From Candidatus Fervidifonticultor sextus (GTDB taxonomy: Bacteria; Sysuimicrobiota; Sysuimicrobiia; Sysuimicrobiales; Humicultoraceae), in assembly GCA_031459875.1 (NCBI GenBank), contig JAVKHQ010000001.1, forward strand, positions 160,001-224,000: 64,000 nucleotides of DNA, read 5' to 3'. The translations under genes were made by a program, and so were the position numbers. How positions within the stretch are numbered: the stretch's first letter is position 1; every line of letters begins with the position of its first letter. Positions 20,660 to 54,933 of the stretch are shown here, one piece after another. Below the pieces are notes generated by a model, which saw only the letters and a list, made by a program, of their open reading frames with translations, was not told the DNA's origin and searched no databases.

Positions 20660-20792
20660 CTCAGGCTCACTATACCCTGGGCAGCCGATCATGGGCAGAG
20701 GCCCGGCCGCAGTCAGGGGCACGCGGTGGCGAGGCAGAGGGTGTAGAGGTGGAATCCGCGGGGCACCGACCAGTCCGCTGTCAGGCCGGGGC

Positions 20793-21245
20793 CTACGGCA
20801 GGACCTGCACGCGGGTTGAGGAGCCGTCGCTTCGGAGCGTCAGCGTGACGGTGGCGGCCCCGGACGCGCCCAGGAAGCTGCACCGGGACGGCCCACCGCC
20901 CGGGTCGCCCTGCGCCTGGAGCTGAATCTCCGTCGCCGTGCCGGCGGCCGCCAGGGTGAAGTTCCAGCAGTTTCCGCCCGGTTCCTGAAATCCAAACGTG
21001 GCGGCGAAGTTCGCCGAGGTGAGGCCGACCCAGGTGCCGTACTGCTGGTAGTACGCCCACGCCATGGTCTTGAGTTCCTGGAGCGTGTTGTCCGCTTCGG
21101 GCAAGAGGCTGTTTCGACCGCTGGCGGCGTACCGGGGGATCGCCAGGGCCAGCAGGATGCCCAGAATGGCCATCACGACCACCAGTTCGACCAACGTGAA
21201 TCCGCGGCTGCCGACAGACCGTCGCCTGCGCAGCTGGGGCCCCAT
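20793..21245 (-). CDS. type IV pilin (paralog 2)
   Basis: Class III signal peptide RG|FTLVELVVVMAILGILLALAIP; two C-terminal Cys. Confidence 0.92.
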   Translation of the reverse strand: MGPQLRRRRSVGSRGFTLVELVVVMAILGILLALAIPRYAASGRNSLLPEADNTLQELKTMAWAYYQQYGTWVGLTSANFAATFGFQEPGGNCWNFTLAAAGTATEIQLQAQGDPGGGPSRCSFLGASGAATVTLTLRSDGSSTRVQVLP

Positions 21246-21298
21246 CGTCTCGCGTCACGCTCCTCGGGAAGATTCAACGGCACCTGCCATCATATCCC

Positions 21299-21325
21299 AT
21301 GCCCACACGGGGCCGCCGTCCAGAC
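21299..21325 (-). promoter_or_regulatory. putative SigB/SigF-type promoter GTCTGG-N15-GGGCAT
   Basis: Motif with a 15-nt spacer, about 55 nt upstream of pilin 2. Confidence 0.5.
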
Positions 21326-21351
21326 GCCTGCGGGGTTCCCCCGGCGCCTGA

Positions 21352-23007
21352 TCACAGGGTCGGCCTCGAGCTTTGGTGGCGCGTCAGCCTGAACACGGTG
21401 ACGCCGTTGAAATCGGCCACGGCCCGGAAATCGTAGATGTCCTTCAACAGGCCGCGGAGCCTCTCCATCGCCGCGCCGGGCAACGGCTGCGTCGTCACCA
21501 GCCACATCACTTCGTGTTGCGCCGCATACGAGCGGAGGATCTCCAGGTTCCGCTCCACGAGGGCCGGATCCGGGCGGATCTCCGCCTGAATCCGCCCGTA
21601 GAACTCCTGGGGGGTCATGTGTTCGACCCGCTGCGACCCCTTGAAGTAGTAGGCAAGCGCAATGCGCCCGAAACTGGGAAAGGCCACGATGAGGTCGTCC
21701 GGTCCTGCCTGCCTTGACAGCAACGCGGCGGCCCGACGCCAGTCGAACCGGGCGTATTGGGGATTCGTATAGACCTCATGCAGGGTCCAGGCGTTGATCC
21801 CGAGGTAGGCCAGCACCAGCACCAGCAGGCCCGCCCGCCGCGAGGGGACCGGCAGCCACGCGCTCAGCCGAAGCATCCCGAAGGCGACCAGCAGCGCAAA
21901 GGCCGGGAAGGCGAAGGAGAAGTAGCGCGGGTAGAAGACGTTGAACCGCAGCGAGAAGACGAACGCCACCACGACCGGCACGCCGAGATAGCCGGCCAGG
22001 AGCCAGAAGGTGCGGGGGCGCCGCCAGACCGCCGCCGATCCGAGCGCGAGGAGCCCGAGGAACGGCAGCAGGACCATCAGTTGCCTGGTCACCGTCGCCG
22101 TCCCCAGGCTGAAGTAGTCCGCAAAGCCGAAGAGGTGCCCGCCGAAGCTGAACAGGCCGACCAGGCCGGTCAGCATGCCCACGCCGACCGGTGGCCGGAA
22201 GAACGGCCAGCCCCTGCCCGAGGCCAGCGTGGCGAAGAACTCGTCCAGCCACGGCGCGAACAGGACGACGGCGGCCAGCAAACTGACCAGCCACGCCTGG
22301 CGCCGGCGGGGCGCGGCGACGAGCACGAACACCGCCTGGCCCGCCAGGGTCAAGAGCGCAAAGTAGTGCGTGTAGAGCGCCAGCACCGTGGCGGCGACGT
22401 AGAGGGGCCACGCCCGCCGGTTCCCCTCCGCCGCGCCGAGCAGCGCCGACCACGAGACCACCGTCAGGAACCCGAGCAGCGGGTACATGCGGGCCTCCTG
22501 CGCCGCGAGGACCTGGAGGGGCGCGATCGCCGCGAGGAACGCCGCCACCCCGCCGACCCACGGGCCGCCCAGCCGCCGGCCCAGCCACCAGGTCGCCCCG
22601 ACGGTCAGGCTGCTCGCGGCGGCACCGAGGGACCGCAGCGCGGCTTCGCCCGTGCCGAAGAGCCGGATCCACACCGAGAGCAGGACGTAGTAGAGCGGCG
22701 GGTGCACATCGTCGGCGGCGGCGAACGCGACGACGTCCTGCAGCGGCCGGGCGGCGGCGAAGAAGGCGTAGGCTTCGTCGAACCAGAGGCTCTTGGCCCC
22801 GATGGACGCGAACCGGAACACCGCGGCCAGCAGCACGCACGCCGCCGCGGGCCCCCAGGCCCGCCAGATGCCGGCCGCGGACCCGGCCAGCCCCCGGGCC
22901 TCGCGGGGTTGCACCAGACCGGCGGTCGCCTCCGCAGCACGCCCTCCGCGCCGGTCCGAAAAGGGGAAGTGGCCCCCAGTCGGGCCACTTCCCGCCTGCG
23001 CGTTCAC
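21352..23007 (-). CDS. GT39/PMT_2-family membrane glycosyltransferase (candidate pilin glycosyltransferase 1)
   Basis: SLWFDE, DVHPPLYY, EARMY, FYPRYF, FDWR; paralog of 19106-20659; starts about 20 nt after pilin 1. True start may be further downstream. Confidence 0.85.
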   Translation of the reverse strand: MNAQAGSGPTGGHFPFSDRRGGRAAEATAGLVQPREARGLAGSAAGIWRAWGPAAACVLLAAVFRFASIGAKSLWFDEAYAFFAAARPLQDVVAFAAADDVHPPLYYVLLSVWIRLFGTGEAALRSLGAAASSLTVGATWWLGRRLGGPWVGGVAAFLAAIAPLQVLAAQEARMYPLLGFLTVVSWSALLGAAEGNRRAWPLYVAATVLALYTHYFALLTLAGQAVFVLVAAPRRRQAWLVSLLAAVVLFAPWLDEFFATLASGRGWPFFRPPVGVGMLTGLVGLFSFGGHLFGFADYFSLGTATVTRQLMVLLPFLGLLALGSAAVWRRPRTFWLLAGYLGVPVVVAFVFSLRFNVFYPRYFSFAFPAFALLVAFGMLRLSAWLPVPSRRAGLLVLVLAYLGINAWTLHEVYTNPQYARFDWRRAAALLSRQAGPDDLIVAFPSFGRIALAYYFKGSQRVEHMTPQEFYGRIQAEIRPDPALVERNLEILRSYAAQHEVMWLVTTQPLPGAAMERLRGLLKDIYDFRAVADFNGVTVFRLTRHQSSRPTL

Positions 23008-23026
23008 GTCCTTCGAGCGGCCAGGT

Positions 23027-23473
23027 CTAGGGGACGACCTGCGACCGCGAAGACGACCCGTCCCCGCTCAGGGTCAGCGTGATGCTGGACCCGCTGGCAA
23101 GCACGCCACAAATGGATCGGGCGCCTGTGGCCGGCGTCTGGGCCCGAAGCTGGATATCCGTCGCCGAGCCGGCGGCAGCCAACGTGTAGTCCCAGCATCC
23201 ACCGCTCGGCGCCGTGAAGCCGAAGGCCGAGGCGAAGTTCCCCGCGCTCAGGCCGACCCAGGTGCCGTACTGCTGGTAGTAGGCCCACGCCAGCGTCTTG
23301 AGTTCCTGCAGCACGTTGTCGCCCTCCGCGATGAGGGAGCTCTTGCGCGCCCCCAGGTAGCGCGGCACCGCCAGCGCGATCAGGATGCCGAGGATGGCGA
23401 GCACGACGACCAGCTCGATGAGCGTGAAGCCGCCCTCGCGCCTCCGCTGTCTGTTCCACCAGAATCTCAGCAC
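23027..23473 (-). CDS. pilA: type IV pilin (probable major pilin, paralog 1)
   Basis: AAGGAGG RBS then GTG; GG|FTLIELVVVLAILGILIALAVPRY; two Cys. Confidence 0.9.
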   Translation of the reverse strand: MLRFWWNRQRRREGGFTLIELVVVLAILGILIALAVPRYLGARKSSLIAEGDNVLQELKTLAWAYYQQYGTWVGLSAGNFASAFGFTAPSGGCWDYTLAAAGSATDIQLRAQTPATGARSICGVLASGSSITLTLSGDGSSSRSQVVP

Positions 23474-24330: not shown

Positions 24331-24750
24331 TCAAGACTGCGCGGCGGGGTGGCGGACCGGGTACCCGTGTGCGGCGGCATTCCGGATAAAGCGCTCGTCC
24401 AGCGTGTAGAGGGGACACCCTTCACTCAGGGCCAGCGCCAGATATGCTGCGTCCTGGGTGCGCGAGACCCCAAGGGCTCGGGCCAGGTGTAGCGACCTGA
24501 CGTGGAGGTCCCTGGGGGTGCGCAGCGTGACGCGCAGGCGGAGCGCCTCGGCCAACGCCACCTCGGCGTCCTCGGCCAGGACCTGTCCGCCGGCTTCGAG
24601 CCGTCGGATGGCCGTGGTCAGCTCGAAGGGCAGCAGGTGAGGGGCGAGGGCTTCGGTGAGCCCGCGCATCCATGCGCGCACTTCAGCATGATCGGGCCCT
24701 CCAGGCAGGACGGCCCGCACCAGCACGGAGGCATCGAGGACGGCCCTCAC
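24331..24750 (-). CDS. vapC: PIN-domain toxin (VapC family)
   Basis: AVLDASVLV...APHLLPFE...QDAAYLALA...LYTLDERF. Confidence 0.9.
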   Translation of the reverse strand: MRAVLDASVLVRAVLPGGPDHAEVRAWMRGLTEALAPHLLPFELTTAIRRLEAGGQVLAEDAEVALAEALRLRVTLRTPRDLHVRSLHLARALGVSRTQDAAYLALALSEGCPLYTLDERFIRNAAAHGYPVRHPAAQS

Positions 24751-25239: not shown

Positions 25240-25659
25240 ATGGACCTGACAGCCCAGCAGGCCGAAAGGCTGGCCCAGGTTGCGGCGCGGTTCGGGCTGC
25301 GGCTCATCGTGGCCTTCGGCTCGCGGGCCACGCGGCGCGTCCACGCGGGCAGCGACCTCGACCTGGCCATCCTGCCGGCTCCGGGCCGGGAGATCGGATT
25401 CCGTGAGCTCGCCGACCTGCTCGCGGACCTCTTTGCCATCTTCCCGGATGCGGACGTCGACCTCGCCCTCATCCCCCACGCCGACCCGCTGTTCCTCAAG
25501 AAGATCTTCGAGACGGGGGTGCTGCTCTACGGGGACGCGGTGGAGTTCCGGCGCTACCGCGTCTACGCCTTCCGGCGGTACAGCGAGTACCTCCCGTACC
25601 TGCGGCTGGAGGAAGCGGCCACCAGGGCGCTGGTGAGGCGGCTTTGCCATGCCGATTGA
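25240..25659 (+). CDS. mntA: minimal nucleotidyltransferase antitoxin (MntA-like, type VII TA)
   Basis: FGSRATRRVHAGSDLDLA (GSx10DxD). Confidence 0.88.
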   Translation: MDLTAQQAERLAQVAARFGLRLIVAFGSRATRRVHAGSDLDLAILPAPGREIGFRELADLLADLFAIFPDADVDLALIPHADPLFLKKIFETGVLLYGDAVEFRRYRVYAFRRYSEYLPYLRLEEAATRALVRRLCHAD

Positions 25660-26077
25660 TCGGGAGGTCCTCGTCCGGAAGAGCACCCTCATCGCCGAGG
25701 ACCTGGTGCGCCTCCGGTCGTTCGCCAACCTTCCCGTTGAAAACTACCTGTCCCGCCTGGACGCCCAGTTGGCCACGGAACGCCTGCTGGAGCGCATGAT
25801 CGGCCGGATGCTGGATGTCAACTACCACATTGCGGTGGAACTCGGCGGCGTCGCGCCGAAGGACTTCTTCGAGTCATTCCTCAAGATGGCCGAGCTGGGT
25901 GTCCTCCCGTCGGAGTTCGCCAGGCGGATCGCGCAGGCGGCGGGGCTACGGAACCGGCTGGCCCATGAGTACAACGAGATCGATCCGCGCCAGGTCCACC
26001 AGGCGGCGGGCCGGGCGCTGGCGGACATCCCCATCTACCTCGACCACCTGCAGCGGTTTCTCGACGCCATCCGCTGA
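25649..26077 (+). CDS. hepT: HEPN/DUF86 RNase toxin (HepT-like)
   Basis: GLRNRLAHEYNEID (Rx4HxY); overlaps the MNT gene. Confidence 0.9.
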   Translation: MPIDREVLVRKSTLIAEDLVRLRSFANLPVENYLSRLDAQLATERLLERMIGRMLDVNYHIAVELGGVAPKDFFESFLKMAELGVLPSEFARRIAQAAGLRNRLAHEYNEIDPRQVHQAAGRALADIPIYLDHLQRFLDAIR

Positions 26078-26245: not shown

Positions 26246-26956
26246 ATGGCGCGTGAGGCGCGCATAGACCGCCTGGAGGCGGCGCTTATCCGGGTCGCCG
26301 AGGCGCAGGCGCGGGCCGATGAGCGCACGGCGCGGCTGGAGGAGTTCCAGGCGCGCACGGAAGAGCGTCTGGCCCGGCTGGAGCAGGCCATGCTCCGGGC
26401 CGAGGAGCGCCTGGCCCGCCTCGAGGACGCCGTGGCCGCCCTGGCCGCCGCCCAGACCCGCACCGAGGAGCGCCTGGCCCGCCTCGAGGACGCCGTGGCC
26501 GCCCTGGCCGCCGCCCAGACCCGCACCGAGGAGCGCCTCGGCCGCCAGGAGGAGGCACTGCTCGCCCTCACGCAGGCGGTCGGCCGGTGGACGGAGCTGT
26601 TCGGGTTCACGCTCGAGGACCTGGCGCGGGAGGTCGCTCCGGCCTACCTGGCCCAGCACTTCGGCATCCGCGTCGAGGCGCTCGACCGCCGCTTCTTCCG
26701 GCTCGACGGCCAGGAAATCGAGGTGGACCTGTACGGAGAGGGTCGGCGCGACGGCGAGGCCGTTGCGGTGGTCGGTGAGGTCCGGAGCCGCATCTACGGG
26801 CGCGACGTCGAAGCCGCCTTCAGGCAGGCAGAACGTCTGGCGCCGCAACTGCCCGGGGCCCCGGTGGCGGTCCTCTTCGGGTTCGTGATTCACCCCTCGG
26901 CCCGGGAAGCGGCCGCCCGGCTGGGGGCTGTCGTCATCTCCTCGTCAGGGCGATAG
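26246..26956 (+). CDS. coiled-coil repeat protein with C-terminal PD-(D/E)XK-like domain
   Basis: AGGAGG RBS; RTEERLARLE repeats; EIEVDLYG...VVGEVRSRI. Confidence 0.72.
   Translation: MAREARIDRLEAALIRVAEAQARADERTARLEEFQARTEERLARLEQAMLRAEERLARLEDAVAALAAAQTRTEERLARLEDAVAALAAAQTRTEERLGRQEEALLALTQAVGRWTELFGFTLEDLAREVAPAYLAQHFGIRVEALDRRFFRLDGQEIEVDLYGEGRRDGEAVAVVGEVRSRIYGRDVEAAFRQAERLAPQLPGAPVAVLFGFVIHPSAREAAARLGAVVISSSGR
26400..26538 (+). repeat. in-frame 63-nt tandem repeat (about 2.2 copies)
   Basis: ccgaggagcgcctggcccgcctcgaggacgccgtgg... at 26400 and 26463, partial copy at 26526. Confidence 0.9.
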
Positions 26957-26971: not shown

Positions 26972-28189
26972 CTACCGTCCCCCCGTGGCCAGCTGGAAGA
27001 TCGGCAGGTACAGCGAGATGACCATCGCGCCGACCACGACCCCCATGAAGATGATCAGCATCGGCTCCAGCATCGAGGTCAGGCTGGCGACGGTGGTCTC
27101 GACCTCCACGTCGTAGAAGTCGGCCACCTTCTCCAGCATCTGCTCCAGGGCGCCGGTCTCCTCCCCCACCTTGGTCATCTGGACGACCATGGGCGGGAAG
27201 ACCCCGGAGAACTGCAGCGGGATGGCAATCGACTGCCCCTCGCGGATGCTGGCCCGCACGGCGTCGATGGCCCCGCCGATGACCATGTTGTCGATGGCCT
27301 TGGCGACGACCTCGAGCGACTGCATGATCGGCACGCCGCTGGCAATCAGCGTGCCGAGGGTACGGGTGAAGCGCGCCACCACGATCTTGCGGTTGAGTTC
27401 GCCCAGCACCGGCATCTTGAGTTTGAACCGGTCGTAGCGGAGGCGCCCCGTCGGGGTCTGCAGGTATCGGCGGAGGACGTAGCCGAGGGTGGCGGCGATG
27501 AGAATGCCGATGTACCAGAACCGGCGAATGGCCACGCTGGTGGCGATGGCCATCTGGGTCGGCAGCGGCAGGGTCCCCGACCCGCCCAGTTCCCGGAACA
27601 GGTTCTCGAACTGCGGCAGGATGACGATGGTCATGAAGAACAGCCCACCGAGCGCTGCGACGGTGAGCAGGACGGGGTAGACCATGGCCGAGCGGATCTT
27701 GCTGCGCAGCGCCTGCTCCTTCTCCAGGTACGTGGCGACGCGGTTCAGGACCTCGTCCAGCACACCGCCGGTCTCGCCGGCCTTCACCATGTTCACGTAG
27801 AGCGACGAGAAGGCCCTGGGGTGCTTGGCCATGGCGTCCGACAGCGGCCGGCCGGCCTCCACGTCCAGCCGGATCTGGGTGATGATCTCCTTGAGGCGGC
27901 GGTTCGTGGTCTGCTGCTCCAGGATGTTGAGCGTGCGCACCAGCGACAGGCCCGAGTTCACCATGGTGGAGAACTGGCGGGAGAAGATGGCCAGGTCCTT
28001 GAGGCCGATCCCAAACAGGCCCTGCAGGTACTGGAAGACGTCGGTCCGCTCGACCGTCCGTTCGAGGTTCGTGATGAAGAACCCCATGTCGCGCAGCCGG
28101 TCCACGACCATGGCGTCGTTGTCGGCCTCGATGACGCCCGAGATCAGGCGTCCGGTGTTGTCCTTGGCACTGTACCGGAAGACGGCCAT
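26972..28189 (-). CDS. pilC: T4P inner-membrane platform protein PilC (GspF family)
   Basis: FSRQFSTMVNSG, AGETGGVLDEVL, AMVYP, GEETGAL, LEPMLII. Confidence 0.97.
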   Translation of the reverse strand: MAVFRYSAKDNTGRLISGVIEADNDAMVVDRLRDMGFFITNLERTVERTDVFQYLQGLFGIGLKDLAIFSRQFSTMVNSGLSLVRTLNILEQQTTNRRLKEIITQIRLDVEAGRPLSDAMAKHPRAFSSLYVNMVKAGETGGVLDEVLNRVATYLEKEQALRSKIRSAMVYPVLLTVAALGGLFFMTIVILPQFENLFRELGGSGTLPLPTQMAIATSVAIRRFWYIGILIAATLGYVLRRYLQTPTGRLRYDRFKLKMPVLGELNRKIVVARFTRTLGTLIASGVPIMQSLEVVAKAIDNMVIGGAIDAVRASIREGQSIAIPLQFSGVFPPMVVQMTKVGEETGALEQMLEKVADFYDVEVETTVASLTSMLEPMLIIFMGVVVGAMVISLYLPIFQLATGGR

Positions 28190-28198
28190 GGCGGCGTC

Positions 28199-29380
28199 CT
28201 ACCCCCTTGCGATCCGGGCCACCGGCTCGACCTCCCCGCCGGACTCTCGGATCATCTTCCGGAGTTCCTCGGGGTGGATGGCCCGGCTGAGCGCGTCGTC
28301 CACCGAGATGAGCTTGCGCAGGCAGAGGTCGCGGAGCGACTGGTCCATGGTCTGCATGCCCAGGTTCGCCCCGGTCTGGATCGCGGTCTCGATCTGGTGG
28401 GTCTTGGCTTCCCGGATGAGGTTGCGGATAGCCGGCGTGGCCAGCATGACCTCCACGGCCGGCACCCGGCCGATCTCCTCGATGCTGGGCCAGGCCGAAC
28501 CCGCCGCGCTGCCCAGGCGCGGCTTGGCGACCGTGCGGTTCTCCGACCGCCCGCGGTAGCGGGCATTCGGCAGCAACTGCTGCGAAATGACCGCCTCGAT
28601 GACCATGGCGAGCTGGATGCGGATCTGCTGCTGCTGGTAGGGCGGGAAGACGTCGATGATGCGGTCGATGGACTGGGCGGCGTTGGCCGTGTGCAGGGTG
28701 GCGAACACCAGGTGCCCGGTCTCGGCGATGGTCAGCGCGGCCGAGATCGTCTCCAGGTCGCGCATCTCGCCGATCAGCACCACGTTGGGGTCCTCCCGCA
28801 GCACCGCGCGCAGCGCGTTGGGGAACGACTGGGTGTCGAACCCCAGCTCCCGCTGGTTGACGATGCTCTTCTTGTGCTGGTGCAGGTACTCGATGGGGTC
28901 TTCCACGGTCACGATGTGGGCGCTGCGCTCGGAGTTGATGAAGTCGATCATCGCGGCCAGCGACGTGGACTTGCCGTGCCCGGTAGGGCCCGTGACGAGG
29001 ATCAGGCCGCGGGGCTTCCGCGTGAGCTCCTTGAGGATCGGGGGGAGGTTGAGGGCCTCGACGGAGGGGATGGTCATGGGGATGACGCGGATGGCGATCC
29101 CCACCGCCCCGCGCTGCCGGTACATGTTGACGCGGAACCGCCCCAGCCCCGGCACGCCGTAGGACAGGTCCAGTTCCCAGAACTTCTCGAACTTCTGCTT
29201 CTGGAAGGTGTTCAGCATGCTGTACCCGAGCTGAAAGGTGTCCTCGGCCGTCAGCACCTCGTAGTGCTCCATGGGCACCAGTTTCCCCCACAGCCGCATC
29301 GTGGGCTTGATGCCGCTGGTCAGGTGGAGGTCCGAGGCCTGGGCGGTCACGACCTCGCGGAGCAGATCCTCGATGTGCAT
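28199..29380 (-). CDS. pilT: T4P retraction ATPase PilT
   Basis: GPTGHGKST, EDPIE, LREDP...GEMRD, TLHT, AIRNLIRE motif. Confidence 0.97.
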   Translation of the reverse strand: MHIEDLLREVVTAQASDLHLTSGIKPTMRLWGKLVPMEHYEVLTAEDTFQLGYSMLNTFQKQKFEKFWELDLSYGVPGLGRFRVNMYRQRGAVGIAIRVIPMTIPSVEALNLPPILKELTRKPRGLILVTGPTGHGKSTSLAAMIDFINSERSAHIVTVEDPIEYLHQHKKSIVNQRELGFDTQSFPNALRAVLREDPNVVLIGEMRDLETISAALTIAETGHLVFATLHTANAAQSIDRIIDVFPPYQQQQIRIQLAMVIEAVISQQLLPNARYRGRSENRTVAKPRLGSAAGSAWPSIEEIGRVPAVEVMLATPAIRNLIREAKTHQIETAIQTGANLGMQTMDQSLRDLCLRKLISVDDALSRAIHPEELRKMIRESGGEVEPVARIARG

Positions 29381-29397
29381 CCCCATCCCCCCCAAGG

Positions 29398-31107
29398 CTA
29401 CTCGACGAAGACCACCCGGAGCATCTCCTCCAGCGAGGTGACCCCCGCCACGACCTTCGCGACGCCGTCCTGCTGCAGGGTCCGCATGCCGGAGGTGATC
29501 GCCGCCCGCTTAAGCACGTCGGCCGAGGCGCTCTTCACCACCAGGGTGCGGATCTCGTCGTCCACCAGCATGATCTCGAATAGACCGATGCGGCCCTTGT
29601 AGCCGATCTGGTTGCAGGCCTCGCAGCCCTTCGGCCGGTAGATCACCGGCGGCGGCTCCCCCGGGCCCGCGAGCCCGTAGCGCACCACGACCTCCGGCTC
29701 CGGCGTGTAGGGCTCGCGGCATCGACTGCAGAGCATGCGGACCAGCCGCTGCGCCACCACGCCGATCACCGAGGAGGAGACCAAGAACGGCTCCACGCCC
29801 ATGTCCACCAGCCGCGTGACAGCCCCGGGGGCGTCGTTGGTGTGCAGGGTCGAGAGCACCAGGTGCCCGGTCAGCGCCGCGTGGATCGCGATGCGCGCCG
29901 TCTCCTCGTCGCGTATCTCGCCCACCATGATGATGTCCGGGTCCTGGCGCAGGAACGACCGCAGGCCGTTGGCGAAGGTGAGCCCGGCCTTGGGGTTGAT
30001 CTGCACCTGGCTGATCCCGTTCAACTGGTACTCCACCGGGTCCTCGATGGTGATGATGTTCACCTCGGGTTTGTTCAGGCGGTTGAGGATGGCATAGAGG
30101 CTGGTGGTCTTGCCGCTCCCGGTCGGGCCGGTGATGAGGATGATGCCGTAGGGCTTGGCGATCAGCGACTCGAACCGCGGCAGGTCGCTGGCCAGCAGCC
30201 CCAGTTTGTCGATCCCCACCAGCGCCGAGCGCTTGTCCAGGATGCGCATGACGACCTTCTCGCCGAAGACCGTCGGGACCGTGGACACGCGCAGGTCGAT
30301 CTCCCGCTGGTCCACCCGCAGCTCGATGCGGCCGTCCTGGGGCACGCGGCGCTCGGCGATGTTCATGTTGGCCATGATCTTGATGCGGCTGGTGGTCGCG
30401 GCCTGGACGTGCCTGGGCGCCGTCATCACCTCGTAGAGGGTGCCGTCAATGCGGTAGCGGATGCGCAGCCGGTTCTCCTGGGGCTCCACGTGGATGTCGC
30501 TGGCGCCCTGCCGGACGGCCTGGAGCAGCATCAGGTTGACCAGGCGGACGACCGGCGCGTCGTCCACGATCTCGCGCAGTCGGTCGACCCCCGGCTCCTC
30601 CTCCCCCACGTCGGCCGGCCGGATCTCCTGGATGACCTGGTCCAGGGTCCCCTCGAGGGCCGGATACCTGTTCACGGCGTACTGGAACCCGTCCGGGGTG
30701 ATGGCCGCGGGGACGACCTCGCGCTCGACGAAGCGCCGGATATCGTCGAGGGCCACAACGTCGAGGGGGTCCACCATCCCCAGCACCAGCGCGTCCTCCT
30801 CCAGGCGGAGCGGGAGGACCTGGTAGCGCCGGATCATCGGCTCGGGGAGGATGGTCAGCACCTCGTCGGGAATCGTCACGGTCTGCGCATTGACGTACTC
30901 GATCCCCAACTGGTTGGCGATGGCCTTGGCGATGGCATCCTGCGAGGCCAGGCCCATGCCCACCAGCACCTTGCCGAGGCGATCGCCCGTGGTGGCCTGC
31001 GCCTGCAGGGCCTGGTCGAGCTGGGCCCTGGTGATCAGGCCGGCCTCGACCAGCAGTTCGCCCAGGCGGACCCGTCGCCGGGATGCCACGATCCTAGGTT
31101 GTCTCAT
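29398..31107 (-). CDS. pilB: T4P extension ATPase PilB (GspE/PulE) with intact N-terminal MshEN c-di-GMP-binding domain
   Basis: RLGELLVEAGLITRAQLDQALQAQ...RLGKVLVGMG; GPTGSGKT; LRQDPD; CxxC...CxxC. Confidence 0.95.
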   Translation of the reverse strand: MRQPRIVASRRRVRLGELLVEAGLITRAQLDQALQAQATTGDRLGKVLVGMGLASQDAIAKAIANQLGIEYVNAQTVTIPDEVLTILPEPMIRRYQVLPLRLEEDALVLGMVDPLDVVALDDIRRFVEREVVPAAITPDGFQYAVNRYPALEGTLDQVIQEIRPADVGEEEPGVDRLREIVDDAPVVRLVNLMLLQAVRQGASDIHVEPQENRLRIRYRIDGTLYEVMTAPRHVQAATTSRIKIMANMNIAERRVPQDGRIELRVDQREIDLRVSTVPTVFGEKVVMRILDKRSALVGIDKLGLLASDLPRFESLIAKPYGIILITGPTGSGKTTSLYAILNRLNKPEVNIITIEDPVEYQLNGISQVQINPKAGLTFANGLRSFLRQDPDIIMVGEIRDEETARIAIHAALTGHLVLSTLHTNDAPGAVTRLVDMGVEPFLVSSSVIGVVAQRLVRMLCSRCREPYTPEPEVVVRYGLAGPGEPPPVIYRPKGCEACNQIGYKGRIGLFEIMLVDDEIRTLVVKSASADVLKRAAITSGMRTLQQDGVAKVVAGVTSLEEMLRVVFVE

Positions 31108-31336
31108 GGCGCTCCATCAACAGTACGACGTGGGCCTTGTGCACCATCACCGCCCCGGCGCTGTAGAGGAGCCGTCCGTCCAGCGCGTACACCCGCGCGG
31201 AGGTGATGGGCAGGAAGTCCTTGGCCTGGTTCATCCGGTCCGACAGCCGGGTCGTCGACGGCAGGTGCAGGTCCCCCTCGATGCGGTGGTGCGGCGTGAA
31301 GATGATGACCGCCTCCCGATCCATCTCGACCTTCAT
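31094..31336 (-). CDS. small conserved beta-rich hypothetical protein (DUF6812-like)
   Basis: HRIEGDLHLP...RLSDRMN...FLPITSARV; ATGA-coupled to the MerR gene and overlapping the pilB start. Confidence 0.65.
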   Translation of the reverse strand: MKVEMDREAVIIFTPHHRIEGDLHLPSTTRLSDRMNQAKDFLPITSARVYALDGRLLYSAGAVMVHKAHVVLLMERHETT

Positions 31337-31614
31337 CGGCCGGCTCCTCGGCTCTCCACCGCCAGTTCCACCGACCGGGAGGTCTCCAGGAGCCGCTGGA
31401 TGCCCTTGAGGCTCATCCCCCGGTCCACCATGGCCTTCACCCAGCGGATGCGCTCCACGTCGTCTTCGCTGTAGAGCCGGTGCCCTCCGCCGGTCCGTGC
31501 CGGATTGATGAGGTTGTACTGGTCTTCCCAGGCCCGGATCCGCCGCGGGTTCACGCCGGTGAGTTGCGCCACCGTCCTTATAGGATAGATTGGCGCCCGC
31601 CTGTCCACAATCAT
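31333..31614 (-). CDS. MerR-family HTH protein (stand-alone DNA-binding domain)
   Basis: YPIRTVAQLTGVNPRRIRAWE...PARTGGGHRLYSEDD; ATGA overlap with the DnaB-like stop. Confidence 0.88.
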   Translation of the reverse strand: MIVDRRAPIYPIRTVAQLTGVNPRRIRAWEDQYNLINPARTGGGHRLYSEDDVERIRWVKAMVDRGMSLKGIQRLLETSRSVELAVESRGAGR

Positions 31615-33185
31615 CGGCTGCCCCCTCCATTGCCTCCGGGCCGGGGCGTCCCGACGAGGTCCCGTTGGGGTCCGTACCCGTGTTCGCGCAGGTAGGTGTA
31701 GATATCCTGCAGCTTGGAGAACCCGTGGAAGTCCGGGCGGTACTCCTGCTCCAGCTTGTAGTCCAGCTCCACGAACTTGTTGAGGGTGACGAAGAAGGCG
31801 AACTGGACGATGTTGGAGGCCGACTCCGGCGCGTCCCGGTTCTTGTCCACGAACAGGTTGACGATGTCCACCGTCGGCAGGTCGGCTGGGTCGAACCCCT
31901 CGGCCTTGGCCCGGGTCTCGATGAGCTGGTGGAGGTCGTGGGTGGCCTTCCAGTCTTTGGCCAGGACCATGGCGACGTCCAGGTCGTACTCCAGGTCGCC
32001 CGAGCCCATGCTGTGGTGCATCGTCGGGCGGTTGAACGGGTTGAAGATCTCGGCCTCCTCGGCCGGCCGCTCGTCCAGCCGGCACCCTTCCTTGTCGAGG
32101 GGCGAGATGGCGAAGACGGGGCAGTTGAGCTCCAGGCTCAGTTCGGCCAGGGCCGTCGAGATGCGGTCGGTGCGGGCCTTCCAGTCCTCGATGTGGTCCG
32201 ACAGCGGGATCTTCTGGAGGTAGTCGAAGAAGATGACGACCTCCTGGGTCTGGAACTCCTGCATGAGGTTGTGGGCATGGGCGCGGATGCGGTCGAGGGT
32301 CTCCCGCCGTCCGGCCTCGACCAGGTGCAGGTAGGGTCCGTACCGGGCCAGGCGTTCCCGCGCCGCCTCCAGCTTCTCGCCCACCGGCTCGCCGTTGGGC
32401 GAGACGCCGGCCAGGATCGTCGTAGGGTTGACGCCGGTCTCCTTGGCGATCAGGCGGGCGGCCAGCACGCGGCGCGTCTGCTCCCACGTATAGTACAGCA
32501 CCGGGATCTTGTGGTTGGTCGCCACGTGCACGGCCAGGTCGAGGGTGAGGTTGGTCTTGCCGCGGCGCGGCGCGCCGGCCAGCCCGTAGTAGAAGCCGCG
32601 CCGCAGCCCCGAGAGCAGCGCGTTGAGCCGGTCGAAGGGGCTGATGGAGTACCCCAGGATCCCGCCGGCGCCCGGGGAAGCGCGCGGGGCCAGCAGGTGC
32701 GGGAAGGCCTCGGCGATGGGCGCCACCTGGCGGCGGACGCGGCGCCGCTGGATCTCGAGCAACTGGTGGATGGCCTCGGTGGTGAACTGCACGATGTCGT
32801 CCTGCTCCCGGTCGTGCCGGTAGAGGTAGCCGCCGATGGCCTCGTGGAGCCGCGCCAGCAACTCGCGGCTCTCCGCAACCTTGAGGTGCTCGATGAGCCC
32901 CATCAGGTCGCCGGCGTTCGGCGGCGCGGTCTTCAGCACCGAGGCCAGATAGCGGTCGAGCTCCGGGCTCAGCATCCCGCGCTCGGTCAGGGCGGCGCGC
33001 AGGGTCGCTTCGTCGATGGCGCCGGCGGGCATCCCGTGGAGTTCGACGACGACCTTCGCCAGCCGCCGCGCCTGGGGCGAGGGCAGCAGGTCCACGTGGA
33101 AGCCTTCGGTGAGGGCCATCGTGACCAGGTGGCGGTCGCGGATGAGCCCGGCCAGCACCCTCGTCTCGACCTGGTGGAGTTCCAT
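31611..33185 (-). CDS. divergent DnaB-like (SF4, RecA-fold) ATPase/helicase
   Basis: GAPRRGKT, YYTWEQ, FFDYLQ, FAISPL, RPTMHHSMGSGDLEYDLDV, DKNRD; GGAGGAGG RBS. Confidence 0.85.
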   Translation of the reverse strand: MELHQVETRVLAGLIRDRHLVTMALTEGFHVDLLPSPQARRLAKVVVELHGMPAGAIDEATLRAALTERGMLSPELDRYLASVLKTAPPNAGDLMGLIEHLKVAESRELLARLHEAIGGYLYRHDREQDDIVQFTTEAIHQLLEIQRRRVRRQVAPIAEAFPHLLAPRASPGAGGILGYSISPFDRLNALLSGLRRGFYYGLAGAPRRGKTNLTLDLAVHVATNHKIPVLYYTWEQTRRVLAARLIAKETGVNPTTILAGVSPNGEPVGEKLEAARERLARYGPYLHLVEAGRRETLDRIRAHAHNLMQEFQTQEVVIFFDYLQKIPLSDHIEDWKARTDRISTALAELSLELNCPVFAISPLDKEGCRLDERPAEEAEIFNPFNRPTMHHSMGSGDLEYDLDVAMVLAKDWKATHDLHQLIETRAKAEGFDPADLPTVDIVNLFVDKNRDAPESASNIVQFAFFVTLNKFVELDYKLEQEYRPDFHGFSKLQDIYTYLREHGYGPQRDLVGTPRPGGNGGGSR

Positions 33186-33268: not shown

Positions 33269-33276
33269 GTGAGAAT

Positions 33277-33302
33277 ATGCCCAGAAGATTGAGGGATTAG
33301 TC
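33277..33302 (-). promoter_or_regulatory. putative SigB/SigF-type promoter GACTAA-N14-GGGCAT (dnaB-like-pilBTC operon)
   Basis: Motif match about 90 nt upstream of the DnaB-like ATG. Confidence 0.6.
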
Positions 33303-33456: not shown

Positions 33457-35751
33457 ATGGACGAGAGCACGCTGCAGACGTTCAAGCGCGAAGCCGGCCT
33501 GGCCGGGGAGAGCCGCACGCTGGAGCGGGCCTTCGTGCACGCCCGGGCGCGGGCGCTGGCGCGGTCCGGGCAGTGGCTGCAGGCGCGCGACGCGTACCTG
33601 GCACTGGTCGACCTGGATCCCGACGAGCCCTGGGTCTACTGGGACCTGGCCGAGGTCTTCCAGATGCTGGAGGCCCGCGACGACGCCGCGGCCGCCTTCC
33701 TCACCGCCGCCGACAAACACCTGGGGCGCGGACAGACTGACCACGTGCTCCGCGCCTACCAGCAGGCCGCGGCGGTCTCCCCCAACGACCCTGCGGTGCA
33801 GGCGAAACTCGGCGATCCTGCGGCGCCGCCCACCGCGTCGCGACCCCGCCCGACCCCCGCACCATCCCCAGCCCCCGCCCCGCCACCTCACGACCCGCCT
33901 CCCTCGGCCCCGCCCGCACCGGCCCCTCCGGCCGCCCCGCCGTCCCCGAAGCCCGAGCGCTCCGGGCCTGCGCCGGCGGCATCTGTGCCCCCTGTCACAG
34001 CACCCCCTGGGGCCGAGCCGCCGGCTCCCGGGCGGGCGCCCCGCACGCGCCTGGGCGGAAAGACCGAGACCCTCGGACAGGTGCTCCTGCAGCTCGGCAT
34101 CATCACCCAGCAGCAGTTGGCCGAGGCCCTGGAGATCCAGTCCCGCACCGGGGAGCGCATCGGCCAGATCCTTCGCGACATGGGAGCCGTCTCTGACCAG
34201 GACCTGGCCCGCGGAATGGCGCACCAGTGGGGGTATCCCTACATGTCGCTGGCCGAGGCGAAGATCAACCCCGAGGTCGCCAAACTCGTCCCCCACGCCC
34301 TGGCGGTGCGGCACAAGTGCATTGCCCTGGACCGGCGCAACGGTCGCCTGGTCGTGGCCATCGCCGACCCCCTCAACGTGATCGCCGTGGACGATGTGCG
34401 GCTGATCACCGGGGCGGAGGTCGATCTGGTGGTCGCCACCGAGGAGGACATCACCAACGCCCTGGCCCGGGTCTACCAGCTCGCCGACAACCTCATCGAC
34501 CGGGCCATCCGGGAGTCGGTCACCGACTACGCCGTCGAGTTCACCGACGAGGACGCCTCGGTGGAGCAACTGCGCGCGCTGACCGAGGAGGCCCCGGTCG
34601 TCAAGCTGGTCAACCTCATCATCGACGAGGCGATCAAGCAGAACGCCAGCGACATCCACGTGGAGCCGCACCGCAACGGGATGTGGATCCGCTATCGGGT
34701 GGACGGCGTGCTCCGCGACGTCATGAACCCGCCCAAGCACCTCAAGGCGGCGCTGGTGTCCCGCATGAAGATCATGGCCGAAATGGACATCGCCGAGCGC
34801 CGGCGGCCGCAGGACGGCCGGGTCCACCTCACCGCGGACGGACGCACCATCGACCTGCGCGTCTCCACGCTGCCGACCATGTTCGGCGAAAAGGTGGTCC
34901 TGCGCATCCTGGACCAGTCCTCGGCCCTGCTGGGGCTGAGCCGGCTGGGCTTCCCCAGCGGGGTGCTGCAGCAGTGGGAGGCCGCCACCAGCACGCCCCA
35001 CGGGATGGTGCTGGTCACCGGCCCGACCGGCAGCGGGAAGACGACCACCCTCTACGCGACCCTCTCCAAGCTCAACACGCTGGACCGCAACATCGTGACG
35101 GTCGAGGATCCGGTCGAATACCAGATCCCCCGCATCAACCAGGTGCAGGTGAACGTGAAGGCGGGCCTGACCTTCGCCAGCGGGCTGCGCAGCATCCTGC
35201 GGCAGGATCCCGACATCGTCATGGTGGGGGAGATTCGCGACCGCGAGACCGCCGAGATCGCCGTCCAGGCCGCGCTGACCGGCCACCTGGTCCTCTCGAC
35301 CCTGCACACCAACGACGCGGCGGGCGCCGTCACGCGGATGGTGGACATGGGCGTGGAGCCCTTTCTCATCAGCTCGTCGTTGATCGCGGTGCTGGCCCAG
35401 CGGCTCGCCCGCGCCATCTGCCCCCGCTGCAAGGTGGCCTACACGCCGCCGGCGGACGCGCTGCGCCGCCTGGGCGCCGACGCCGTGGACGGGAATGTGG
35501 TCTTCTACCGCGGGCAGGGCTGCGACCACTGCCGGGGCACCGGCTACCGCGGCCGGATCGGCATCTTCGAGTTGCTGATGATCACCGACTCGATCCGGAA
35601 ACTGATCGTCGAGCGGGCCTCGTCCACCGAGATCAAGGCGCAGGCGATCCGGGAGGGCATGCGGACGCTCCGGGAGGACGCCTTCGAGAAGGTCCTCTCC
35701 GGGGTTTCGACGATCGACGAGATCCTGCGGGTCGTCTACGTGCAGGAGTAG
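33457..35751 (+). CDS. pilB: second PilB/GspE ATPase with N-terminal TPR-like domain, Pro-rich linker and MshEN-like domain
   Basis: TPR-like helices (ARDAYLALVDLDPDEPWVYWDLAEV); about 80-aa Pro/Ala linker; TLGQVLLQLGII...RIGQIL; GPTGSGKT, LRQDPD, CPRC/CDHC. Confidence 0.92.
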   Translation: MDESTLQTFKREAGLAGESRTLERAFVHARARALARSGQWLQARDAYLALVDLDPDEPWVYWDLAEVFQMLEARDDAAAAFLTAADKHLGRGQTDHVLRAYQQAAAVSPNDPAVQAKLGDPAAPPTASRPRPTPAPSPAPAPPPHDPPPSAPPAPAPPAAPPSPKPERSGPAPAASVPPVTAPPGAEPPAPGRAPRTRLGGKTETLGQVLLQLGIITQQQLAEALEIQSRTGERIGQILRDMGAVSDQDLARGMAHQWGYPYMSLAEAKINPEVAKLVPHALAVRHKCIALDRRNGRLVVAIADPLNVIAVDDVRLITGAEVDLVVATEEDITNALARVYQLADNLIDRAIRESVTDYAVEFTDEDASVEQLRALTEEAPVVKLVNLIIDEAIKQNASDIHVEPHRNGMWIRYRVDGVLRDVMNPPKHLKAALVSRMKIMAEMDIAERRRPQDGRVHLTADGRTIDLRVSTLPTMFGEKVVLRILDQSSALLGLSRLGFPSGVLQQWEAATSTPHGMVLVTGPTGSGKTTTLYATLSKLNTLDRNIVTVEDPVEYQIPRINQVQVNVKAGLTFASGLRSILRQDPDIVMVGEIRDRETAEIAVQAALTGHLVLSTLHTNDAAGAVTRMVDMGVEPFLISSSLIAVLAQRLARAICPRCKVAYTPPADALRRLGADAVDGNVVFYRGQGCDHCRGTGYRGRIGIFELLMITDSIRKLIVERASSTEIKAQAIREGMRTLREDAFEKVLSGVSTIDEILRVVYVQE

Positions 35752-39383: not shown

Positions 39384-39740
39384 CTACACCAACGCCGCAG
39401 CCAGCTGGCTGTTGCGCCGCATCTCGAGCCGGATGCGCCCCAGGTTGGCCTGCCGCGTCCCGACCACCACCAGCACCGCGTCCGGTCCGGCCGGCCCGAT
39501 GGCCACCGGCCCCTCGTCGAACTCCAAAAGCAGATTCCGCAACATGCCCCGTCCCATCTCCCGGCCCATGGAGTCGGAGGCGGCGATGTTGCTGGCGACG
39601 ATGGCACCGACGGCCTCCAGGTCCACCCCCTCCTCCGATGTGATGCCTTCGACCACGAAGCCGTCCCGGCCCACCACCAGCGCGGCCAGCACGCCGTCGA
39701 TCTTCGAGAGGTCCAACAGCACGTCTTTGAGCTGCGACAT
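39384..39740 (-). CDS. roadblock/LC7 (MglB-like) protein
   Basis: LSKIDGVLAALVVGRDGFVV...ANLGRIRLE. Confidence 0.9.
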   Translation of the reverse strand: MSQLKDVLLDLSKIDGVLAALVVGRDGFVVEGITSEEGVDLEAVGAIVASNIAASDSMGREMGRGMLRNLLLEFDEGPVAIGPAGPDAVLVVVGTRQANLGRIRLEMRRNSQLAAALV

Positions 39741-39782: not shown

Positions 39783-40598
39783 CTACGGCCTCCCGGGAGA
39801 TGGGACGCCCATCAGCCCCCGGAGTTTGGCCAGGGCCGAGGCGAGCACGCGTGACACATGCTTCTGGGAGATCCCGATGCGCCTGGCGGCTTCCATCTGG
39901 GTCATGTCCGTGTAGAACAGGTAGTAGAGCACCTTCTTCTGCAGGCTGTTGAGGGATTCCATGGCCTCTGTGAGCATGACGCGGTCTTCGATGGGCAGCT
40001 GGAAGCTGATGTGCGACCGGTGCCGGATCCGCTCCCGGTCCACCCGCAGGTCGCCGTTGTCATCCTCGGTCTCCAGCGAGATGGTGCGCAGCACCTCGCG
40101 CGTCCGGAGGATCTCCAGGAGCCCCTCTTCTTCGATGTTGAGTTCCTGGGAGAGATCCTCGAGCCCCGGGAACCGGCCGGTCTCACTCACGTACTTGCCC
40201 ACCGCCTGCTCGATCTGCGCATTGAGTTTCTGGAGCCAGCGCGGCCTGCGGATCGTGTCGCGCTGATCGCGCAGGTAGTGGCGGATCTCGCCGCGGATGA
40301 GGTAGCTGGCATAGGTGGCGAACTTCGCCCCTTTCGTCGGGTCGAAAGCCGAGATGGCGTTGAGCAGTCCGATGTAGCCCACCTGCACGAGGTCATCGGA
40401 GGGGACGCCGGAGAAGATGAACTCGGCGGCAATGCGCCGGACCAGTGGTGTGCACGCCAGGACGACCCGCTCCCGCGTGGCGGGAGCATGCGTTTCCACG
40501 TACTCGGCCATCAGGGCATCGACGTCGTCATACGCGGGGGTGTCAGGCTGGGTTGGACTCTGCCGTTCCACACGGCGCTGCACAGTGCGGGCACCCAT
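39783..40598 (-). CDS. SigB/SigF/SigG-family RNA polymerase sigma factor
   Basis: DDLVQVGYIGLLNAISAFDP..GAKFATYA..IRGEIRHYLRD; region 4 TQMEAARRIGISQKHVSR. Confidence 0.93.
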   Translation of the reverse strand: MGARTVQRRVERQSPTQPDTPAYDDVDALMAEYVETHAPATRERVVLACTPLVRRIAAEFIFSGVPSDDLVQVGYIGLLNAISAFDPTKGAKFATYASYLIRGEIRHYLRDQRDTIRRPRWLQKLNAQIEQAVGKYVSETGRFPGLEDLSQELNIEEEGLLEILRTREVLRTISLETEDDNGDLRVDRERIRHRSHISFQLPIEDRVMLTEAMESLNSLQKKVLYYLFYTDMTQMEAARRIGISQKHVSRVLASALAKLRGLMGVPSPGRP

Positions 40599-45655: not shown

Positions 45656-46645
45656 CTAATTCTCCCCGAGGCGGCGGCGGAGTTCCCCAATCTCGCCCGG
45701 GATCGACAGCAACCGGCGGTAGAGGGCCGTCACATTGGCGACGTACCACTGCGTTTCGGCGTAGGGCGGGATGCCCTCGTACCGCTCCACGGCCCCGCGC
45801 CCGGCGTTATAGGCGGCCAGGGCCAGATGCGCGTCCCACCGGAACTGATCCAGGGCGCCCCGCAGGTATCGGATGGTCCCGTAGAGGTTCTGAACCGGAT
45901 CCCACGGATTGACGCCCAGCGCCCTGGCGGTCTGCGGCATCAACTGGCCCAGCCCCATCGCCCCCGCCCGCGAGCGCGCGGTGGGCTGAAAACCTGATTC
46001 GATCACGACGAGGGCGACCACCAGGCGGGGGTCCAGGTTGAACTGCCGGCTGTAGCCGAGCAACGCGTGGGCGATAAGGTCGGCTTCCCGGGCGGCCAGC
46101 CGCGGATTGTACGAGCGGGCGATGAGGTCGTAACTGCGCACGCTGAGCACCCATGCTGCGGCGCGGCCCGGCGAAAGCGCCCTGGTCTGGGCGACCTGCG
46201 CCTCCAGCGGCGCCGGCAGCGGGCCGACGGCCCGCAGGGCCTGTTCGGCCATCTGGCGCACCTCAGGCGACCCGCGGGCCGACAGCGCCTGCCGAAATGC
46301 CGAGGCCGCCTCCTCGGCGCGGCCCGAGCGGGCCAGGAGGTGGCCCTGCCACAGGAGGATCGTCGCCTCATGCGGGGCGAGGTCGGCCGCGCGCGCCACG
46401 GAACGGTGTGCGCGCAGCACGTCGCCGCGGTGGAACTGGACGACGCCCAGCCACAGCCACGCGTAGGGATCGGTCGGCCGCTGGGATGCCGCGAGGGTGA
46501 AGAGGGCCTCCGCGTCACCCAGTCGGCCCTGCGCGAACCTCGCCGCGCCATCGCGCAGGGTGGCCGCATCGGCCCTCGCAGCCAGCAGGAGGGCTCCACA
46601 CAGCCCGGCCACCAGAGCCGCCCCCGGTCGCCGGCGCGCCGTCAC
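45656..46645 (-). CDS. exported TPR-containing lytic transglycosylase (SLT domain)
   Basis: Signal peptide; TPRs; [35 protein letters not shown]. Confidence 0.9.
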
Positions 46646-47001
46646 GTCAGTTCCTCGGCGATCTCGGCCCGGCGACGGCGGATCTGCATGCGGGCCCGGG
46701 CCAGGTTGCCGCCGGCCTCCAGCACGGTGGCCAGGTAGTGGGTCGGTCCCAGGACCACGGCCAGCACGGCCAGGTTGTCGGTGGTCATCGTCAGGTGGTC
46801 CAGGTCGCCGCCGTCCAATTTGCGCAGGCAGTACGCCCCGACCTTGATGAGGGCCGCCAGGTCGGCCGCTGCAGCCTGCAGGTCCTGCGCCCCGCTCTTG
46901 GACACGGCCTCGATCACCTGCCCGTCCAGGCCCAAAAGCGCCACCGCGCGCGTATCTTCCCCGATGAGGTCCTGGAGGATGCCCCGCAGTTTCGTCGTCA
47001 T
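46642..47001 (-). CDS. roadblock/LC7 (MglB-like) protein
   Basis: [12 protein letters not shown]...[10 protein letters not shown]; coupled to the SLT gene. Confidence 0.82.
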
Positions 47002-51365: not shown

Positions 51366-51383
51366 CGCACGACCGGGCCCGGC

Positions 51384-51743
51384 CTATTCCTCGCCAGCCT
51401 CGTCGTCGTCCTCGACGTCGTCGCCGTCCCCGTCGACGCTCTCCCCCATCTCGCCGAGGACGTCCAGACCGCCGGTCGCCTCGTCGTCCCCCTCGAGGAT
51501 GACCTCGCTGTAGCCCGCCTCTTCCAGCGCGGCCATGACGCGGTTCAACTCGTCATCATCGTCGATCGGCACGAGCCGGTCCTCGCCCTCCATCCGGAAG
51601 ATGACCGCCGCCGCGTCCTCCTCGTCTTCCGGCAGGAGAACGGCGTAGCGGCGGCCGTCCACCTCGAGGGTGTCAACGAGATTGAAGCGGTGCTCGCGGC
51701 CGTCCTCGTCCTGGAGCGTGACGATATCCAGCTCTTCGACCAC
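51384..51743 (-). CDS. DUF1292 domain protein (YrzB-like, acidic)
   Basis: IVTLQDEDGREHRF...YAVLLP...IDDDDELNRV; conserved position between ruvX and mltG. Confidence 0.85.
   Translation of the reverse strand: MVEELDIVTLQDEDGREHRFNLVDTLEVDGRRYAVLLPEDEEDAAAVIFRMEGEDRLVPIDDDDELNRVMAALEEAGYSEVILEGDDEATGGLDVLGEMGESVDGDGDDVEDDDEAGEE

Positions 51744-52255: not shown

Positions 52256-54933
<2,678 letters not shown>

Follow-up and report, generated by a model that had tools for sequence, protein, structure and literature searches.

We describe a gene for a DnaB-like ATPase of 524 amino acids (31611..33185, minus strand) that lies among the pilus motor genes in a stretch of 64,000 nucleotides, called the window here, from the genome of Candidatus Fervidifonticultor sextus (3.05 Mb, 96% complete). 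Judged from its sequence, the protein is a full-length, non-replicative DnaB paralogue of a distinct family. Within the phylum, for which 94 genomes were compared, its gene is retained and lost together with the tetratricopeptide repeat (TPR) domain of the pilus ATPase PilB2, with a Roadblock protein (Roadblock A) and with the retraction ATPase PilT1, and not with ComEC, DprA and ComM. It is in our opinion likely that the protein has some role in the pilus system of this phylum. The more specific reading that we prefer, in which it would act on the pilus motors as an ATPase switch or scaffold, in the manner of MglA or ArlH but without belonging to either group, has about an even chance of being correct.

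The gene is the first of six on the minus strand, and their order, coordinates and overlaps are as the first-pass annotation of this DNA had given them. It shares a four-nucleotide ATGA overlap with a gene for a MerR-type helix-turn-helix protein of 93 amino acids (31333..31614, MerR_1 match in Pfam), which has in turn an ATGA overlap with the gene for a DUF6812 protein of 80 amino acids (31094..31336, assigned by Pfam). The latter overlaps by 14 nucleotides with pilB1, which encodes an extension ATPase (29398..31107, T2SSE and MshEN matches in Pfam). After a gap of 11-17 nucleotides follows pilT1 for the retraction ATPase (28199..29386, with an alternative start at 29380; T2SSE), and after another 9 nucleotides pilC for the platform protein (26972..28189; T2SSF). 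On the other side of the dnaB-like gene, 271 nucleotides away across a common intergenic region, lies a divergent second pilB that had been overlooked earlier (pilB2, 33457..35751, plus strand). Its product consists of an N-terminal TPR domain (ca residues 1-125), a proline-rich linker, MshEN and the ATPase domain, and it is the most constant neighbour of the dnaB-like gene. Downstream of pilB2 there are minor pilins, a Roadblock gene and a gene for a SigB/F-type sigma factor.

The relation to DnaB is clear from several comparisons. The protein matches DnaB_C (PF03796) in Pfam with 87.4 bits (cut-off 27), while its score of 108.8 bits against replicative DnaB (TIGR00665) is below the curated cut-off of 385.25. 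The canonical dnaB is found elsewhere in the genome (G000:C56:41718-44090), after rpsF-ssb-rpsR-rplI, the neighbours being named from their sequences, so that the dnaB-like gene is not the only dnaB present. This canonical gene has an intein-like insertion directly after the Walker A lysine. Many dnaB frames in the phylum are 780-1400 amino acids long, which suggests that inteins are common in its canonical dnaB genes.

The N-terminus had been called atypical in the first-pass annotation. It is not a foreign domain, however: a profile built from 45 family sequences aligns to solved DnaB structures (2vye, 2r6a) over positions 6-475, N-terminal domain included, and PF00772 is matched in the proteins P0033, P0034 and P0122. 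The AlphaFold model of the protein (predicted local distance difference test, pLDDT, of 74) has DnaB structures as its top Foldseek matches (E 4e-18, ca 20% identity). The extent of the profile alignment and the structural match to DnaB together lead us to the assignment as a full-length paralogue. Beyond the DnaB-type N-terminal domain and the RecA-fold domain, the protein has an acidic loop between H3 and H4, a helical insert at 413-438 and a C-terminal extension. Residues 383-398 of the model, around a candidate metal site C368/H390, are mostly below a pLDDT of 50.

In the profile search, a tight family is followed by a drop at ca 145 bits to general DnaB-like proteins. A tree was calculated with IQ-TREE for 70 of the 101 collected sequences, 7 long-branch and 23 near-redundant rows being omitted, as was P0173 from all trees. 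It supports the family with 93/73, the family plus a degenerate sister of 399 amino acids with 100/100, and the canonical DnaB set, from which the family stays apart, with 100/99. The nearest outgroup consists of metagenomic DnaB-like proteins with the motifs S-S-x-N-R and K-E-S-G-x-I-E-Y (P0149, P0153 and others), which are probably mobile-element helicases. The sister family (389-399 amino acids; P0148, P0151, P0152, P0184, P0256; L349:4883-6079) has no N-terminal domain, its Walker A, catalytic glutamate and arginine finger are decayed, and it is a probable pseudo-ATPase. At its two metagenome loci, which are near-identical to each other, no pil neighbours are seen. We also considered this sister as a separate gene in five Riflebacteria-type genomes, but the best match there is the active family gene itself.

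The outgroup, together with the finding that the language-model neighbours of the protein are mostly viral clusters, could suggest a phage or mobile-element relic, a recent insert, or else a backup replicative helicase. These origins are largely refuted, and we consider them highly improbable. Orthologues with 48-97% identity are present in 72 of the 94 genomes, and the family tree largely follows the host families. The ratio of nonsynonymous to synonymous substitution rates is 0.13-0.29 in seven pairs of dnaB-like genes, indicating purifying selection, and a viral scan gave only four distant matches at 24-25% identity. As to a backup helicase, the low TIGR00665 score argues against it, and so does a second, higher-scoring DnaB in all 10 of the genomes outside the phylum that were checked.

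We now consider the active site and the channel. The motifs GAPRRGKT, TWEQ, DYLQ, ISPL, SMGSGDLEYDLD and KNR, read earlier from the sequence, are all present, and the five catalytic positions K210, E235, D321, K448 and R450 are invariant in 45/45 family sequences. By these residues the ATPase site is intact, with a trans-acting K-x-R finger. The H3 glutamine, which is a sensor residue in DnaB, occurs in 0/45 family sequences as against 15/15 canonical ones. Its alteration and the change from EQ to EY had been pointed out in the first-pass annotation. Both are real, but too much was read into them, as they are common to the nearest DnaB-like relatives: in the outgroup the glutamine is found in 0/27 sequences, and E-Y in H4 is also present. 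The two changes are therefore inherited, and they say little about function.

Other changes distinguish the family from its relatives. The outgroup shares with it the EQ after the catalytic glutamate, but keeps the basic residue of K-E-S-G in 27/27 sequences. In the family LRESG has lost its basic residue (arginine in 0/45 sequences of alignment A1, and a different residue at this position in each of the 17 phylum members of the tree set). The equivalents of the GkDnaC channel residues R330, R332 and R344, which are taken from an excerpt of PMC3236778, are basic in 0-3 of 45 family sequences when mapped via the profile alignment. The H3-H4 loop is longer and acidic, with a net charge in the family of −7.1 (17 sequences) and −5.0, compared with −1.1 for canonical DnaB (15 sequences) and a neutral −0.3 for the outgroup. 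Relative to replicative DnaB (TIGR00665; Geobacillus 2vye/4esv, Aquifex 4nmn), the protein has thus full-length homology with an intact Walker A, catalytic glutamate, Walker B and K-x-R finger; it differs by its score below the family cut-off, its coexistence with the canonical protein, the missing sensor glutamine and LRESG arginine, the longer acidic loop, an insert of ca 14 residues, the C-terminal extension and a pilin-type promoter.

The gene neighbourhood was mapped for the window and 40 further loci, picked for long contigs across families (n=41). A pilB or pilT gene directly flanks the dnaB-like gene in 30 of them (f1 13/13, f4 7/8, f5 10/10). In family f1 (13 loci) the arrangement is that of the window, with divergent pilB2 on one side and dnaB-like, merR, DUF6812 (in 12/13), pilB1, pilT and pilC on the other. 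In seven of the eight f4 loci pilB2, dnaB-like and pilB1 stand in line, the eighth gene lying in a pilin cluster ca 9.5 kb from pilC. The 10 loci of f5 have divergent pilB2, followed by dnaB-like and pilT, with no pilB1 at the locus. The linkage to pil genes is thus conserved in three of the four large families. From these arrangements it is a motor gene that stays constant as the partner, rather than merR or DUF6812: merR adjoins the sigma gene in f3 and f4, and DUF6812 is seen only at f1 loci. The tight unit of dnaB-like, merR, DUF6812 and pil genes that had been proposed does exist in this window, but as a general feature it was overread, since the MerR/DUF6812 coupling is confined to one family (merR at 13/41 loci).

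A second line of evidence comes from the promoter. The motif GACTA-N15-GGGCATA (33276..33302, minus strand; CTA-N15-GGGCATA at 33300-33276) lies upstream of the dnaB-like gene and is common to pilin genes, and it is also found at 23667-23642, before a type IV pilin gene (23027..23473, minus strand). A search for CTA-N14-16-GGGYAT within 400 nucleotides upstream gave the motif for 27 of 29 f1 orthologues; a 30th locus, from another family, was without it. The promoter noted in the first-pass annotation is consequently real, and a spacer of 15 nucleotides is the commonest of 24 lengths tested (9 sites; next 6). A classical GTTT-type SigB −35 box was considered as the common element and rejected, the orthologues sharing CTA instead. 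Genome-wide, 14 of 2923 called genes carry the motif upstream, including a pilin gene and the second pilT. In f3 it stands before 6/10 orthologues (a seventh is cut by the contig end) as against 0/154 other genes in those loci, and it also precedes pilins and pilT1 in that family. The promoter has therefore been kept in f3 after the gene left the operon, and the dnaB-like gene stays in the pilin regulon. Upstream of the f4 (0/8) and f5 (0/10) orthologues the motif is absent. The neighbouring SigB/F-type sigma factor (39783..40598, minus strand) probably reads this promoter, as the linkage of the genes indicates.

It can be added that the second pilT (G000:C42:4859) shares the motif with genes that look from their sequence PilZ-like (C7:49152), response-regulator-like (C30:18903) and, for a product of 706 amino acids, signalling-like (C60:3715). 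This suggests that the motif-bearing genes form a pilus and cyclic di-GMP regulon.

The co-occurrence of genes was examined over 54 high-quality genomes, and the counts are given here in the order both genes, only dnaB-like, only the other gene, neither. They are 42/1/1/10 for the PilB2 TPR domain (counted by hand), 42/1/3/8 for Roadblock A and 41/2/2/9 for PilT1. The corresponding values are 39/4/10/1 for PilC, 35/8/4/7 for ComEC, 38/5/8/3 for DprA and 37/6/10/1 for ComM. In lineages without the dnaB-like gene, the sigma gene and merR are still present, as are a PilB and PilC, and the PilB TPR domain was found at 0/9 of their pil loci examined.

These data bear directly on the first of two hypotheses in the first-pass annotation, that the protein is a helicase or translocase for processing pilus-imported DNA, similar to RadA or ComM in transformation. 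The DnaB-family ATPase motifs are intact, RadA has itself a DnaB-type core, and the nearest relatives lack the sensor glutamine yet keep K-E-S-G. The genome has ComEC, DprA and ComM (G000:C20, beside dprA). However, it already has a separate RadA-like gene (G000:C24) in addition to ComM. RadA/Sms, built of a zinc finger, a RecA domain and a Lon-like domain, and ComM, an AAA+ Mg-chelatase-like helicase, are likewise ring ATPases, but the protein matches neither the RadA/Sms nor the ComM family (TIGR00368) in Pfam and NCBIfam. ComEC is found in 0/23 genomes of family f4 (G057-G079; 0/5 on retest at E 0.01), where DprA is kept in 15 and ComM in 14 of the 23. It is found in 0/3 genomes of genus g14 (G035-G037), in which DprA and ComM are also absent, and many of these ComEC-less genomes keep the dnaB-like gene. 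ComEC is absent from 8 of the 43 high-quality genomes that have the dnaB-like gene, and in 4 of these (G036, G037, G066, G077) DprA and ComM are absent too, while G092 has ComEC and ComM and no dnaB-like gene. No competence gene could be recognised from the N-terminal sequences of the 14 motif-bearing genes. The hypothesis is weakened by these findings and we regard it as improbable.

The second hypothesis, that of a regulator of the pilus motor, fits the co-regulation and the co-loss. How a switch or scaffold of this kind might work can be outlined by analogy with the MglA-MglB-SgmX system and with ArlH, the genomic association being what is observed and every physical step being inferred. 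The protein would assemble into a ring like that of DnaB but freed from the need to thread DNA, and this ring would act as a nucleotide-dependent, ATP-hydrolysing switch or scaffold. The nucleotide state of this ring might be set by the two Roadblock/LC7 proteins of the window, of which protein A is MglB-like (39384..39740, minus strand) and protein B (46642..47001, minus strand) adjoins it in families f3 and f4. The TPR domain could then couple the ring to PilB2, and the ring would decide when or where extension and PilT1-driven retraction run. A complex prediction with residues 1-505 of the ATPase, both Roadblock proteins and the PilB2 TPR domain gave a score of 0.00; no controls were folded with it, and it counts neither way.

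The two Roadblock genes are a phylum-wide orphan MglB-like pair, as MglA is found in 0/94 phylum genomes. This search was made with a real MglA protein, which finds the MglA of another phylum at 47-54% identity; the Pfam Arf model was too insensitive for the purpose. In Myxococcus, according to excerpts of PMC11580455 and PMC4316618, a Roadblock protein, a PilB-tied TPR element (SgmX, which recruits PilB) and a nucleotide-binding protein travel with type IVa pili, as they do here. In the phylum, too, an NTPase co-occurs with Roadblock and TPR elements, although with only about two independent losses. The differences are that MglA is missing, that the NTPase is of the DnaB family (524 amino acids, compared with ca 195 for the Ras-like GTPase domain of MglA), and that the TPR domain is fused to PilB. 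The complete version of the proposal, with a replicative-type helicase ring as a Roadblock-regulated nucleotide switch, docked on the PilB TPR domain and gating extension versus PilT retraction in a phylum without MglA, we put forward tentatively and believe to be rather doubtful. If true, it would mean that a superfamily 4 helicase fold plays a small-GTPase-type role, and would provide a first partner for orphan MglB-like proteins.

Several observations weigh against the switch or scaffold, in the protein itself and in its distribution. Near the channel, other basic residues are conserved (K336 in 44/45, R338 in 45/45, K365 in 43/45 with arginine in the other two), and the equivalent of R117 is retained in 29/45 family sequences. 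Single arginine-to-alanine channel mutants of GkDnaC, moreover, unwind faster, not slower, as given in the same excerpt of PMC3236778. Taken with the channel changes described above, these points leave a DNA-motor activity doubtful, yet possible. One can then imagine a DNA-binding ring that ties the pili to the chromosome or cell cycle, loading on chromosomal DNA or partnering canonical DnaB or primase in order to position or time pilus assembly. The whole DnaB architecture is kept, N-terminal domain included, and in Cryosericum-type loci the family gene is one gene away from a divergent dnaA. The pore loop, on the other hand, is acidic and the majority of the channel arginines have gone. Among the folded parts the N-terminal domain shows the lowest conservation (0.52-0.56 vs 0.72-0.93), and the gene is dispensable in several lineages. 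We consider this ring unlikely, although not to the same degree as the transformation helicase.

With respect to the distribution, the co-loss amounts to only about two independent events, one f4 clade in the PilB2 tree and G092, with kin that are not independent. Joint absences fall at contig ends in G016 and G031, both of f1, and the locus is at a contig end in G068 as well. G058, which has no dnaB-like orthologue, carries a PilT1-clade gene at a different locus. In f3 (10 loci) the gene has no pil neighbour. This last point would suit a co-regulated passenger, i.e. a member of the sigma-factor regulon for surface life with a cytoplasmic job apart from the motor, such as nucleotide sensing or protein remodelling, that is in the operon for shared expression. 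The motif is also present before non-motor genes among the 14 that carry it, and the neighbours in Caldisericota and Acidobacteria are unrelated. Against a passenger speaks that the TPR domain has gone from the retained PilB2 exactly where the dnaB-like gene has been lost, with the sigma gene, merR, pilB and pilC still in place, and that three different arrangements all hold the gene beside a motor gene. A passenger is accordingly unlikely, though it is the strongest of the alternatives considered.

For occurrences beyond the phylum, we analysed the 80 best of 512 confirmed stretches, at least six of which are from this phylum as judged by their neighbours. At 12 Riflebacteria-type loci there are prepilin or pilB genes within 10 kb of the family gene. 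At three loci of a lineage grouping with Mcinerneyibacteriota, an MshEN protein is encoded 2.2 kb downstream, and at two of these loci a TPR-Roadblock fusion upstream. Pil genes are found at 0/35 Caldisericota-type and 0/10 Acidobacteria-type loci, many of which are short, and 3/5 small Cryosericum-type genomes carrying the family gene gave no PilC match. Furthermore, Caldisericota and the lineage grouping with Mcinerneyibacteriota have a normal MglA-MglB pair besides the family gene, and G096 has the family gene with no Roadblock match, which means that the family as a whole cannot have the role of standing in for MglA. The link to the pilus is close in this phylum and less so in two others, and in a further two it is not seen.

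A few side observations concern these genomes. A block resembling alaS-ruvX-(mltG) is located close to the pilus genes both in Caldisericota (L265, L267, L268) and in this phylum (window 50322-54933), and a long TPR gene stands directly upstream of pilB in two Caldisericota clusters. Riflebacteria-type genomes have a third, more divergent DnaB-like gene (L261:8567-10192; L262:3869-5389), which in G096 is located before a TPR gene.

Among known systems, a further point of comparison for the preferred reading of a switch or scaffold is the archaellar, KaiC-like protein ArlH/FlaH, which has a single KaiC-type RecA domain and is encoded in an archaellum operon. As with this protein and further KaiC/RecA-type proteins from type IV filament loci of archaea (the loci as seen in an excerpt of PMC13705601), a RecA-fold protein is encoded with a motor ATPase and a platform protein. 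Unlike them, the present protein is of the DnaB lineage, has a DnaB N-terminal domain and is encoded beside a bacterial type IVa system, and it gives no match to the Pfam KaiC model PF06745 at E 0.01.

We found no description of the family or of the arrangement in a literature search covering parts of mostly open-access texts, supplements being outside its scope; the annotation tables of PMC11604079 may list the genes. The main text of the phylum paper does not mention pili, pilus or DnaB, and DnaB, helicase, RecA, Roadblock and KaiC do not occur in a review of PilB cofactors. Orphan Roadblock/MglB proteins were not characterised as of 2014, as stated in the excerpt of PMC4316618. The dnaB-like protein represents a new family of the DnaB superfamily and an accessory that is new for a known machine; should the physical model hold, it would also count as a switch of a new kind. 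Proteins of the DnaB family are known to work as motors on nucleic acids. A paralogue that is conserved and co-regulated and goes with the retraction and regulator genes, not with competence genes, would show that the DnaB fold is recruitable to control a protein machine. The analysis offers in addition testable partners for orphan Roadblock/MglB proteins and for pilus switching in bacteria without MglA.

We turn finally to other features of the window. The DUF6812 protein is predicted to adopt a bent five-stranded Sm barrel, i.e. an Sm/LSm (Hfq-like) fold. Its model (pLDDT 86) has Sm/LSm chains as top structural matches, with Z 8.4 and a root-mean-square deviation of 2.4 over 63 aligned residues for yeast SmF, while Hfq proteins, from which it is thus more distant, give ca Z 5. 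Foldseek gives a template-modelling score of ca 0.6 and E 0.003 against Sm/LSm; no sequence match of DUF6812 to Sm, LSm or Hfq was found. According to excerpts of PMC11407516 and PMC7690835, the Hfq of cyanobacteria is a PilB-binding protein that pilus extension requires. The Sm-fold gene encoded against pilB1, and the SigB/F-type promoter before the pilins, recall this Hfq-PilB partnership and the SigF-pilA system of the same sources. The C-terminal domain to which that Hfq binds is, however, peculiar to the PilB of cyanobacteria, whereas PilB1 ends right after its ATPase domain. An action of DUF6812 on PilB1 similar to that of Hfq is for this family, which gains a fold here, a lead only.

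PilT1 has a low-complexity stretch of ca 30 residues near its C-terminus, apparently an insertion, and the second PilT of this genome is alignable over ca the first 280 residues only. Two coiled-coil repeat proteins are encoded at 26246-26956 and 16750-17529. The first is convergent with pilC and has a nuclease-like C-terminus, and no Pfam match above the cut-off was obtained for it. Between pilC and the pilins there are also a PIN-like gene (24331-24750) and a nucleotidyltransferase/HEPN-like pair (25240-26077), which from their appearance are presumably toxin-antitoxin modules. Large membrane glycosyltransferase-like genes, so labelled from the appearance of their sequences, are interspersed with pilin genes at 19106-23473 and 596-12818, with many more upstream, and they may possibly serve in pilin glycosylation. 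Just outside the window (G000:C1:155348-159680) there is a second set of minor pilins, which includes a DUF4900-like pilin, and a second pilB-pilC-pilin cluster is found on another contig (G000:C37:13275-17315).

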